From: Vulcanimicrobiaceae bacterium
GTDB lineage: Bacteria > Vulcanimicrobiota > Vulcanimicrobiia > Vulcanimicrobiales > Vulcanimicrobiaceae
DNA: 26,675 nucleotides
Direction of reading: 5' to 3'
NCBI GenBank assembly: GCA_046262595.1
Contig: JBHEMM010000035.1
Location: 1-26,675 of the forward strand
Shown here: piece after piece, positions 16,514 through 19,515 of the stretch
Layout of the letters: every line of letters starts with the position of its first letter
Numbering within the stretch: the stretch's first letter is position 1
Translations under genes and position numbers: made by a program
Notes under the pieces: model-generated
Told to the model about the DNA's origin: nothing
Databases searched by the model: none
Seen by the model: only the letters and a program-made list of their open reading frames with translations

Positions 16514-17193
16514 CGTTACTGTTCATCCATGGCGCAGGTTTTACCGGCGCCTGCTTCGAGCGGCAGCTGCGCGCTTTTCCCGGTTCACAGGCGCCGAACA
16601 TGCCCGGGCATTGCGAGCCCGGCGCTCCCGCGAGCATCGAGGACCTGGCGCTCTCCATCGCTTTTTACGCAGCGCACAACGACCTCTCGGAGATCGTGCT
16701 TTGCGGGCATTCGATGGGCGGCGCCATCGCGCTGCATATTGCGCTGGAACAGCTGCTGCCCCTCAAAGGACTGGTCCTGTTGGGCTCCGGCGCGCGGATG
16801 CGCGTCGCACCCGCTTTTCTGGAAGGCATGAAGGCCGACTTCGCCGGGACCGCGCGCGAGATGTCGGCAATGTTCTTTGCAGAACCTCTTCCGCGTCTGG
16901 TCGACTGGGCCGCCGCGACCATGCTCACGGTGGGGGCCGCGCAGACCCGCCGGGATTTTGAGGCATGCAACGCGTTCGATGTGATGGAGCGCCTCGGCGA
17001 GATCGATCTGCCGCTGCTTGCGCTCACCGGGGAGAGCGACCGCATGGCGCCCTCGAAGTATGCTCAGACGTTTGCCGACCGGGTGCCGGGCGCGCAGAGC
17101 AGAATCATTCCGGATGCCGGACACTTCGTCATGGTCGAACGGCCCGAAGAAACAAACGAGGCAATCGCGACGTTTCTCTCGGGAATCGTTTAA
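16510..17193 (+). CDS. Alpha/beta-fold hydrolase
   Basis: LFIHGAG, nucleophile elbow GHSMGG, GESD and AGHFVMVERP (Ser-Asp-His triad). GTGA overlap with yihY. Confidence 0.92.
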   Translation: MTLLFIHGAGFTGACFERQLRAFPGSQAPNMPGHCEPGAPASIEDLALSIAFYAAHNDLSEIVLCGHSMGGAIALHIALEQLLPLKGLVLLGSGARMRVAPAFLEGMKADFAGTAREMSAMFFAEPLPRLVDWAAATMLTVGAAQTRRDFEACNAFDVMERLGEIDLPLLALTGESDRMAPSKYAQTFADRVPGAQSRIIPDAGHFVMVERPEETNEAIATFLSGIV

Positions 17194-17212
17194 CATCGCT
17201 GAAAGGACCGTT

Positions 17213-18214
17213 GTGCGTCGAGTTCCCGTTCTGCTTTTGCTGTTTGCAAGTCTCGCGCTGGTGGGCGTCGCGCGGCCCACGCCTTCGCCGTCGCCGACAC
17301 CCGCAGCGGCGCCGGCGCCGCCGCGCGCGCTTCCGCTGGTGATCGTCTATCCGTTCGATACCAGTACCGACATCAAGTCGGGAACCGGCCAGAGCGCCGC
17401 ACAGGTATTCATGCAGCAGATGAACGCGGACGGCGGCCTGGACACGATTGAAGGTCCGGCGAACGTCAAGCGTCCCGACTACTTAACACATGCGCGTTCG
17501 GTGAACGCCGCGTACTATGTCGCCGGCTACATGACGCCGCTCGGTAACGGCGTTTCGCTCGTCGAGCAAGTCGTTTCCACGCGCAGCGGAACGATCGTTT
17601 TTGGACAGACGGCGCAGATTGAATCGATTCAAGACGCGACGGCGCAGGCGACGATGCTGCACGACGGCATCACGGCGCGCGAACGTGAGCTGAGCGACGC
17701 CTATACGCAAACGCAAGCGCAAGCGACCTCGACGCCGGCCGCCGGCAACCAGGCCAATATCGGCAAAGGCCTCGCCGGCATCGCTGGCCTTTTCCACCGG
17801 AATAAATCCGCCACGCCGGCGCCGGCCATCGTGAAACCGGCGAAGGGCGTATTCGTCGTGCACGTCGGCGGTTCTCTGCCCTCAGCCGATCTCAGCCGCG
17901 CGAGCGACGCCCTCTACGCCGCGATGAACGAACGCTACAACGTTCGCAAAAGCGCTGCTTCGCCGGCGAACCTTTCGAAGAGCGCCGACGGGATCTGCGG
18001 CACCGACCGCAACAACACGATTGCAAGTGGTACCGCATCGGCGCAAGTGCGCCATCATGGTTTTGGTGCGCGCGCCCAGTATACGTTCGTGCTGGACGTC
18101 TATACGTGCTTTGGCGCCAAACTCGCAGAGGAAACCGCTACAGCGGATTCGCTCGCGCCTGCCGTGCGCAAAGCCGTACAAGCGTACGCGACGGATTACC
18201 CGGGGAACGGTTAG
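17213..18214 (+). CDS. Exported hypothetical protein with TolB-N/CsgG-like alpha/beta domain(s)
   Basis: AAGGA SD 5 nt before GTG 17213. Signal peptide RRVPVLLLLFASLALVG, Pro-rich linker, then VIVYPFD...YYVAGYMTPLGNGVSLVEQVVSTRSGTIV. Confidence 0.7.
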   Translation: MRRVPVLLLLFASLALVGVARPTPSPSPTPAAAPAPPRALPLVIVYPFDTSTDIKSGTGQSAAQVFMQQMNADGGLDTIEGPANVKRPDYLTHARSVNAAYYVAGYMTPLGNGVSLVEQVVSTRSGTIVFGQTAQIESIQDATAQATMLHDGITARERELSDAYTQTQAQATSTPAAGNQANIGKGLAGIAGLFHRNKSATPAPAIVKPAKGVFVVHVGGSLPSADLSRASDALYAAMNERYNVRKSAASPANLSKSADGICGTDRNNTIASGTASAQVRHHGFGARAQYTFVLDVYTCFGAKLAEETATADSLAPAVRKAVQAYATDYPGNG

Positions 18215-18342
18215 TTAAGCGGATCGCTATCGTGCCGCTCATCGTCCGCGGCAGGGCTTGACGGTTCCGGCCTACAGGCCGTGCACGAAAGCAGTCAATA
18301 CTCCGCCGGGCAGCCGCACGGTTTGTCCCGTTCTTCAGCCAT
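18211..18342 (-). CDS. Candidate 43-aa Cys-rich peptide with in-frame TGA (putative selenocysteine)
   Basis: AGGGGT-aaa-ATG at 18342. Translation MAEERDKPCGCPAEY-TGA-LLSCTACRPEPSSPAADDERHDSDPLN-TAA. The final TAA (18213-18211) overlaps the convergent gene's TAG. Confidence 0.45.
18258..18298 (-). promoter_or_regulatory. Candidate bacterial SECIS-like stem-loop
   Basis: Apical stem CGGCC/GGCCG with UGUA loop starting 18 nt after the UGA. Lower stem UUGAC/GUCAA includes the UGA itself. Confidence 0.4.
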
Positions 18343-18473
18343 TTTACCCCTAACGACCGCCTTTCGTAGATCTGCGCCCGGAGCACCGGCGACCATGCGC
18401 ATGTCATCAGCAAAAGCCGACGCTATGACCTGCTTGTTGTCGTTGTTGCCGCTACGGGAGCTTTAGCTCTACA

Positions 18474-18986
18474 TCATTCCTCGTCTGAGAGTAGGCCGGG
18501 CGGCAGCTCGACGACGATCCGTTTCGCCGCGGTGTCGATGGAACGAATGAATGCGGCAACCATGGGAACCAGTCGGCCGTTGACGACGAGCATGTCCGAG
18601 CTCGGAAAATGCTCGACCGCCGTCACGCTGCCTAAAGCATTCTCTGCGCCGTCGTACAACACGCAGCCCGTCAAGTCGCAATCGAGGTACTCGCCGGCAT
18701 CGAGTTCGATGCGCGAACGATCCGCAAAAAGCCGCGCGCCGGCAAGCGCCTGGGCCGCGTCCGCGTCAGCAGCGCCTTGCACGCCGATGAGCAGGCGCCC
18801 TTTGTGCTCGCGCACGGAGGAAAGCGTGATGGCGCGCCGTGCGCCGTCTTTGAACTCGAGATCGAAGTGCGCCCCGGGGATGAAAAGATCGCGACCCGAT
18901 GTGGTCGGGTCGCATTTCAACTCGCCTCGAAGGCCGAAGATGCCGGCGATGCGTCCGACGGGGAAACGTTCACTCGGTTCCTGCGT
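18474..18986 (-). CDS. rimM: Ribosome maturation factor RimM (start uncertain: ACG 18986 or GTG 19046)
   Basis: VGRIAGIFGLRGELK, ELDAGEYLDCDLTGC, LVPMVAAFIRSID...IVVELPPGLL. Follows rpsP-khpA. Confidence 0.92.
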   Translation of the reverse strand, partial: TQEPSERFPVGRIAGIFGLRGELKCDPTTSGRDLFIPGAHFDLEFKDGARRAITLSSVREHKGRLLIGVQGAADADAAQALAGARLFADRSRIELDAGEYLDCDLTGCVLYDGAENALGSVTAVEHFPSSDMLVVNGRLVPMVAAFIRSIDTAAKRIVVELPPGLLSDEE

Positions 18987-19515
18987 CGCCTTGCTCCTGG
19001 CCGCCTGGTTCTTCTTCCAGTTCGCTCGTGTCGAAAATTTCCACACCGACTTTGCCCTCGGCCGTCGCGCGGATGATCGTGCGCAGCGCTTGTGCTACGC
19101 GTCCGCTGCGGCCGATCACTTTGCCGACATCATCGGGATCAACGATCAGCTCGATCGAGGCTTGCTCGCCGTTTTCGGGTGGGAAGTTATCGACGATCAC
19201 CTCGCCGGGCTTGTCCACGAGCTTCTTGGCCAGAAACTCAAGCAGCCGCGCGGCGCGTTCGCGCGACGCAACGGGATCCGCAGGTTCGCGGTTTTTGCTG
19301 ACGCGCTCGAAGCGACCGCCGGCGAATTTGCGGCCGCCTTGCCCGGCGGGCGCTCCGCCGCCGCTTGAACGGCGCCGCGGCGCGTCGTCCTCCGGTTCAA
19401 CATCGTCGGCGATCGATTCGCTCGAAGCGATCTTGCGCGCGCCCAGCGTCGAGTGCCGCTCGGCTTCTTCGCCTTCTTCGTTGAAGAGCCCGAACTCGTC
19501 ATCGAAGGCGCTCAT
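18970..19515 (-). CDS. khpA: KhpA/YlqC-type KH-domain RNA-binding protein with long N-terminal extension
   Basis: LLEFLAKKLVDKP...VDPDDVGKVIGRSGRVAQALRTII (GxxG loop). Lies between rpsP and rimM. Confidence 0.88.
   Translation of the reverse strand: MSAFDDEFGLFNEEGEEAERHSTLGARKIASSESIADDVEPEDDAPRRRSSGGGAPAGQGGRKFAGGRFERVSKNREPADPVASRERAARLLEFLAKKLVDKPGEVIVDNFPPENGEQASIELIVDPDDVGKVIGRSGRVAQALRTIIRATAEGKVGVEIFDTSELEEEPGGQEQGDAGTE

Follow-up and report, generated by a model that had tools for sequence, protein, structure and literature searches.

A short open reading frame (ORF) on the minus strand of the window, by which we mean the whole 26,675-nucleotide stretch of Vulcanimicrobiaceae DNA analysed here, appears to encode a 43-residue micro-selenoprotein whose in-frame UGA would be read through as selenocysteine (Sec). 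Judging from the comparison of homologous sequences, we put the probability of this read-through at about 0.9. In the proposed mechanism, SelB would bind the G-U of a hairpin loop 3' of the UGA and deliver Sec-tRNA to the codon, and the full-length peptide would be made only if selenium is available. An earlier note on the window had suggested that such a micro-selenoprotein lies hidden here, with a bacterial SECIS inside the ORF, and this proposal is now strongly supported by the Sec machinery of the genome, by a TGA shared by all distinct homologous cores and by a covarying hairpin. Every hallmark of a selenoprotein that could be tested was found here, except for the usual Cys homologue. The ORF and its homologues form an apparently undescribed family of small, lineage-restricted, position-variable and Cys-rich micro-selenoproteins of environmental bacteria.

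A Cys-rich ORF with an in-frame UGA downstream of rimM

The translation of the ORF (18342..18211, minus strand) reads MAEERDKPCGCPAEY-U-LLSCTACRPEPSSPAADDERHDSDPLN up to its stop codon, with a single TGA at 18297-18295 (codon 16), the candidate Sec codon, lying inside a Cys cluster just as the earlier note had described. Alignment with homologues places the conserved core at residues 8-25, including a C-G-C (Cys9 and Cys11; 18310..18318, minus strand) ahead of the TGA and a C-x-x-C (Cys20 and Cys23; 18274..18285, minus strand) 3' of it. The SD-like AGGGGT proposed for this ORF is present at 18351-18346 on the minus strand, only 3 nt before the ATG, which is a short spacing. The frame was also claimed to end on the stop of the convergent gene, and the peptide TAA (18213-18211) indeed overlaps the TAG of that gene (18212-18214).

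The upstream neighbour is rimM (18474..19046, minus strand; TIGR02273, over cut-off), itself preceded by two genes which we take to be ffh and rpsP from recognition of their sequences; a KH-domain gene upstream gave NCBIfam matches below the cut-off. The convergent gene (17018..18214, plus strand) is of unassigned family, with no Pfam or NCBIfam match, and its true start is probably later; similar genes convergent to rimM occur in many relatives. Between the stop codons of rimM and the convergent gene lies a 259-bp gap (18215..18473), which is much shorter in several relatives and only a few bases long in the congener G002, where the rimM stop nearly abuts the convergent gene. This stretch has no repeat elsewhere in the genome. 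An Rfam search of 18000-18700 with E up to 10 gave no match, and neither the promoter scan nor the terminator scan gave a hit at the locus (0 each).

Taken from this single genome, the case for a selenopeptide is suggestive only. The motif C-x-C-x4-[TGA]-x3-C-x2-C has a single occurrence in the genome, where about 0.05 would be expected, a UGA followed by 18 nt, UGUA and a stem of at least 4 pairs was found at 2 of 53,730 TGA triplets, and the codon usage of the 43-codon ORF is not coding-like (LLR -3.6). It is the conservation among homologues that lifts the ORF above chance; the 43-residue gene is missed by gene finders.

Conservation of the UGA and its flanking codons

Members of the family were found in 12 genomes (8 genera, 2 families, one order) and on at least 12 metagenome contigs. 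The 24 member loci, the metagenome ones being taken from the matches listed, were reduced to 18 distinct 66-nt cores for analysis; one core, and with it one genus, comes from an unpublished genome (G420), on which no conclusion rests. The motif with its TGA and its four invariant Cys is kept in all 18 cores, and frame 0 contains no other stop in any of them. The codons of the first three Cys alternate between TGC and TGT (16/2, 11/7 and 12/6, respectively), as expected under selection on the protein. The fourth Cys is encoded by TGT in 18 of 18 cores, although TGT makes up 15% (1082/7007) of the Cys codons in the long ORFs of the genome, as expected if the same codon also serves as the hairpin loop described below.

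When all pairs of cores were compared, replacement differences (567) exceeded synonymous ones (385), since the spacers are free to vary. In the four codons 3' of the UGA, 6 synonymous and 0 replacement pairwise differences were counted in genus g51, and 4 synonymous and 5 replacement ones in genus g19. Outside the stem, third codon positions are the least conserved (0.68 vs 0.83 and 0.86), and the indels in the tails are multiples of three (6 and 24 nt in g51, 3 and 18 nt in g19). The coding-type conservation 3' of the UGA, for which a check had been proposed along with one for a conserved TGA in relatives, was thus found both as synonymous variation and as frame-keeping indels. Several members have no clear SD, and for one (G336) a standard start codon is lacking within 30 codons.

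The exchange of TGA for a Cys codon, also proposed as a check, was not found. No Cys-for-Sec homologue was detected in 185,579 species genomes or in protein collections, where the DNA pattern used for the genomes was strict and proteins of 40 aa are poorly called in the collections. A library of 1.84 billion proteins gave 3 matches, each in 5-14 short stretches, the one inspected being repetitive, and a collection of 5.8 billion proteins searched at near and longer lengths with E up to 10 gave none. According to PMC12013277, it now appears that Cys-containing homologues exist for every selenoprotein known.

A covarying hairpin 3' of the UGA

The hairpin CGGCC-UGUA-GGCCG, which the earlier note had placed with its loop 18 nt after the UGA, was located at 18281-18268 on the minus strand, with exactly this spacing to the start of the loop. 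The loop consists of the fourth Cys codon plus A, with its G at +20 after the UGA. Such an arrangement of SelB and SECIS is the bacterial route of Sec insertion in the consensus model (PMC13188914, section 5). The SECIS model applied here calls for a loop of 3-9 nt with a G within its first two positions, a stem of 4-16 bp, a spacing of 16-37 nt and an energy of at most -7.5; the hairpin has the loop UGUA, a stem of 5 bp (6 in the consensus), a spacing of 18 nt and an energy of -11.8 kcal/mol.

In isolation the hairpin folds no better than shuffled sequences (z -0.2 to -1.3). Across the 18 cores, 102 of 108 cells of the upper stem are paired, with compensatory changes on both sides at 4 of the 6 pairs; these counts overstate the number of independent events, as the members are related, but the pattern still recurs across 8 genera. 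The same degree of pairing was reached by 0 of 500 shuffles, controls with a slid register paired at 16-46%, and RNAalifold, unprompted, predicted exactly the same UGUA-loop hairpin. Some compensatory changes came at the price of altering the amino acid, as with P to A in g51. A lower stem UUGAC/GUCAA (18258..18298, minus strand) had been proposed to enclose the UGA as well. It can surround the UGA in the MFE fold here, but it is found at this locus only, with 23% of the cells paired across the 18 sequences, and the lower stem is not conserved.

Synonymous changes at the Cys and Leu codons flanking the UGA on both sides, the low conservation of third positions and downstream indels that keep the frame all argue for translation through the UGA. 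They speak against the alternative that the UGA is a true stop, or that the locus is a non-coding element (a hairpin, or a promoter-like TTGAC plus palindrome), a pseudogene or a chance ORF. This alternative could draw on an invariant TTGA which resembles a -35 box, though no -10 box lies at promoter spacing and no terminator was found, and further on the hairpin not being significant by itself, the negative codon-usage score and the lack of a Cys homologue that would tie the UGA to a sense codon. Given that an identical TGA is present across 8 genera, it is not a fresh nonsense mutation. Overall we regard the absence of read-through as highly improbable, and the nonsense-mutated gene and the chance ORF, both kept as options in the earlier note, are effectively excluded by the conserved TGA together with the covarying hairpin.

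Selenocysteine machinery and other selenoprotein genes of the host

The host genome (2.4 Mb, 62.7% GC, about 90% complete) contains selA, selB, selD and two tRNA-Sec genes, and the proposed check for selA, selB, selC and selD thus turned out positive for all four. In-frame TGA codons are carried by selD itself (G000:C4:12992-13915, L078), by a molybdopterin oxidoreductase gene with an FdhA-type U-H motif (G000:C2:88217-89569, L267) and by a peroxiredoxin gene encoding TPG-U-T (G000:C15:17423-17764, L272). In fdhA the G-U of the SECIS loop lies at +20/+21 after the UGA, the very offsets of the micro-selenoprotein hairpin; the loop G is at +18 in the peroxiredoxin gene, and the best such loop in selD is at +34. 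The candidate SECIS loops of these three genes have A-G-U-U-U in common.

The two tRNA-Sec genes (G000:C22:39385-39478, L003; G000:C62:4644-4737, L002) are clearly different from each other. Each of them exceeds the Rfam cut-off and has covarying stems. L002, the second, lies on a different contig from selA and selB, and contamination, put at 2%, may play a part here. Among the 12 member genomes, selA is intact in 11, while in G325 it is in frameshifted pieces and selB is intact. This co-occurrence discriminates little, because 299 of the 348 genomes of family f1 carry selA.

All 18 cores have U as the base 5' of the UGA, though the amino acid encoded there can be Y, H, R, S, A or V, and U is also found at this position in 2 of the 3 other host selenoprotein genes (selD and peroxiredoxin). 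This might possibly reflect a context rule for read-through in this lineage.

Distribution of the family

A search of 60 relatives yielded 2 true homologues (L041 and L042); the other weak matches were put down to chance, 5 of them having been inspected. The alignment search of 401 genomes of the phylum gave 11 matches, 8 of them members including the window's genome, and L088 and L089 were judged to be chance matches. A further locus, L090:1500-1560 of G376 (E 0.0075), shows identical Cys spacing but carries Ser where Sec would stand; it lacks a hairpin and may be either a chance match or a decayed copy. Among 348 genomes of family f1, 13 matches were obtained, comprising 10 members (3 of them new) and the chance matches L102-L104. 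A relaxed DNA pattern run on the 401 genomes returned 58 matches, of which 30 were inspected as loci and the rest judged from the matched 41-mer only; 9 were members, namely the earlier 8 and the divergent G325. Since G325 was missed by the profile searches, their sensitivity is incomplete.

The strict pattern, in which TGA, TGC and TGT were all permitted, gave 8 matches in the 185,579 species genomes; 7 were members, all with TGA, and the eighth (L108), which has no hairpin, was a chance match. Among the 114 matches listed in the metagenome scan, at least 12 were members, all with 6/6 stem pairs, and the other 102 were judged to be chance, with 6/6 stem pairs in 0 of 102. A covariance model scored the members, which were in its training set, at 58-92 bits, and the next match in 150 genomes at 25 bits; of the matches at 25 bits or less, 8 were inspected and none was a member. 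The same model gave 0 matches in 41 further genomes of the class, which include no known positive. On viral contigs the strict pattern gave 0 matches and all 15 looser matches were rejected, leaving no member. The gene is rare, being present in 11 of the 348 family genomes searched.

Genomic contexts of the putative selenopeptide gene

The earlier note had assigned the ORF to the tail of the ffh-rpsP-rimM operon, but the position behind rimM is incidental. Within about 520 nt after rimM, the motif was found in 0 of 29 relatives (less was covered in L030, where rimM is split), and the family members occupy at least 9 different, unrelated contexts with no neighbour common to them. In genus g51 the gene lies 3' of recR and is followed by repeats, and this cassette is present in 4 of the 6 genomes in which recR was assembled. 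The end of recR reads ATG-TGA in the 4 carriers and ATG-TAG in the 2 non-carriers, and the ending ATG-TGA creates the overlapping GTG start of the selenopeptide. The first repeat in g51 supplies the last codons and the stop of the selenopeptide. REP-like repeat arrays were also seen 3' of recR and rimM in several relatives (L318-L322, L011, L015 and L020).

Elsewhere the gene lies 3' of a VOC/glyoxalase gene and 5' of a small ORF and a PemK-like gene (G045), with its end overlapping the start of the small gene; 3' of the tmRNA (G027); beside DUF1801 (G336); convergent on a HAD hydrolase gene (L163); or with an AhpD-like gene in its neighbourhood (L178). In genus g19 it sits between divergent PAP2 and downstream phosphoesterase genes, and its frame continues into a 60-aa ORF whose stop overlaps the phosphoesterase start. 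This acidic ORF (L082:1606-1788, plus strand), in frame with the selenopeptide, has an SD and an ATG of its own and gave no Pfam or NCBIfam match.

In L141 the gene overlaps the stop of a ResA-like redoxin gene, behind a gene for an ArsR/SmtB regulator and one for a membrane protein with a CC motif. The three genes occupy L141:978-2462, the regulator matching NF033788 over cut-off and the membrane protein (172 aa) being unannotated. The Atlas clusters matched by the membrane protein at 0.93-0.96 are without Pfam, and the named Atlas cluster, HMA, scored 0.76, which is below the tool's lead threshold. These genes perhaps form an undescribed metal-resistance unit.

In G325 the gene lies 3' of tRNA-Ser, with its core joined in frame to a DUF167 domain (PF02594) that lacks its own start codon at the usual place. 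DUF167 occurs minus the core in five congeners, where it follows crcB or another gene; the start codon is at the usual place in four of them, and one is apparently frameshifted there. As selA is also frameshifted in the G325 assembly, the fusion may be an indel artefact. One weak independent hint for it comes from P0006, which is 87% identical and was called from an internal GTG, and none of 66 DUF167 relatives has an N-terminal Cys module. Given these contexts, we propose that the gene moves as a short cassette, often starting on the stop codon of the upstream gene and landing at the 3' ends of other transcripts, such as those of rimM, recR, the VOC gene, the redoxin gene, tmRNA and tRNA-Ser.

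Possible function of the peptide

The core consists of 15 residues, C-G-C-P-x-x-x-U-L-x-x-C-P-x-C, in which only the five chalcogen positions are invariant. The tails of the peptide are unconserved and often acidic, and the chain outside the core is probably disordered. A self-contained soft-metal site fits best with invariant chalcogens, free tails and the lack of a partner gene. Our best guess, at somewhat below even odds, is that the peptide may be a soft-metal-binding micro-selenoprotein: the five thiol/selenol ligands of the core would wrap an ion of a soft metal (Zn, Cu, Cd or Hg), making the peptide a chelator or buffer in the manner of a minimal metallothionein. The ArsR/SmtB metalloregulator beside the gene in L141 supports metal binding, and the weak sequence matches in the PDB (E above 0.1) are all C-P-x-C zinc knuckles. 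Against it, only 1 of about 10 contexts points to metal resistance. No metallothionein or zinc-finger model in Pfam or NCBIfam matched, the AlphaFold model is of low confidence (pLDDT 64, pTM 0.30), and Foldseek returned 0 matches for it.

The spacing of U-x3-C-x2-C equals that of the radical SAM CxxxCxxC, from which the earlier note had derived an Fe-S reading. The radical SAM motif requires an aromatic residue before its last Cys. In all 18 cores this place is taken by A, V, L or D. With neither a barrel domain or other surrounding fold nor a Pfam or NCBIfam Fe-S match, the radical-SAM-like reading is weak and is left with the spacing. More broadly, a redox or Fe-S selenopeptide, in which U-x3-C-x2-C would ligate a cluster or four Cys would hold a structural Zn beside a free redox Sec, is in line with most characterised bacterial selenoproteins being redox proteins (PMC13188914, section 7) and with the redoxin (L141) and AhpD-like (L178) genes adjoining in single contexts; given no partner enzyme common to the neighbours, it seems unlikely.

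The in-frame DUF167 fusion of G325, whose congeners have DUF167 minus the core, the g19 frame running into the phosphoesterase-overlapping ORF and the overlap ahead of the PemK-like gene in G045 could also be taken as signs of a portable selenium gate, making downstream translation selenium-dependent, or of a store that banks Sec and titrates SelB. Such a role is quite unlikely in our view: there is nothing to gate where the next gene is convergent (the window, G027 and L163) or where repeats follow (g51), the extension in g19 comes with a separate SD and ATG, the fusion in G325 may be an artefact, and a gate would not require four invariant Cys. The peptide is short, Cys-rich and patchily distributed, which would also suit a modified-peptide precursor (a selenobacteriocin- or ranthipeptide-like RiPP) with a maturase in trans; the catalogue offers a precedent in selenobacteriocin (TIGR04081; PMC13188914, Table 1). 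With 5-16 variable residues instead of a conserved leader before the first Cys, no TIGR04081 match, and scanned neighbours that include no family of radical SAM enzymes, proteases or exporters, a precursor of this kind is very improbable.

Along the line of soft-metal binding, a more specific and quite tentative possibility is a Sec-only micro-module, that is, a mobile metal-binding cassette of about 60 bp in which the codon of the last ligand doubles as the SelB-binding loop. It would have no Cys counterpart, and would sometimes be grafted onto genes (DUF167 in G325, the 60-aa ORF in g19), bringing them under selenium control.

Relation to known selenoproteins and metal-binding peptides

VhuU and other short catalogued selenoprotein families are small in size. 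Listed in Table 1 of the 2026 review PMC13188914 are the dual-CXXC (NF041197), KCU-star (NF033934), selenobacteriocin (TIGR04081), MbdU (NF045648), metal-binding UxxU (NF041115) and VhuU (NF041786) families, which share shortness and/or Cys richness with the present family and some of which are proposed to bind metals; no motif given in that table equals C-x-C-x4-U-x3-C-x2-C. When 17 members were searched at E up to 1, none of these small-selenoprotein models in NCBIfam release 20 matched, Pfam gave 0 families, and NCBIfam gave one unrelated match (E 0.085, far below cut-off). Catalogue families with no NCBIfam or Pfam model are set apart by motif only.

Bacterial metallothioneins (SmtA, MymT) and CxC-x4-C zinc units (CXC/post-SET) are small and Cys-dense. 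The core resembles them in its CxC and CxxC pairs with little else conserved, and differs from metallothioneins in having only five chalcogen ligands, one of which would be Sec, and in having no Pfam match. Bacterial selenoprotein genes whose ORF contains a SECIS that SelB reads, as outlined in section 5 of PMC13188914, have the same in-frame UGA and small downstream hairpin, with a G at one of the loop's first two places followed by U and a spacing range that includes 18 nt. Unlike them, the product here is a peptide of 30-60 aa and not an enzyme subunit, the SECIS loop is a conserved Cys codon, the neighbourhood is not fixed and no Cys homologue was found.

The literature search, with subscription papers mostly outside its coverage, found no description of the family and no paper combining the phylum name with selenocysteine. 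No description turned up in the passages of PMC13326102 covered, and its further parts may list Eremiobacterota selenoproteins. The selenoproteome of family f1 looks unexplored, even though selA is so widespread there. The present family would add one to a prokaryotic catalogue that counts 119 families and subfamilies in PMC13188914. Discovery pipelines filter on Cys-containing homologues, and the authors of deep-Sep (PMC12013277) state that the filters of such tools may miss selenoproteins without Cys homologues. That no Cys version has turned up for so very short a family suggests that a hidden layer of micro-selenoproteins exists, one that searches for SECIS covariation might uncover. Chemical synthesis of the core is feasible at this length, which makes the contribution of Sec to the putative metal site directly testable.
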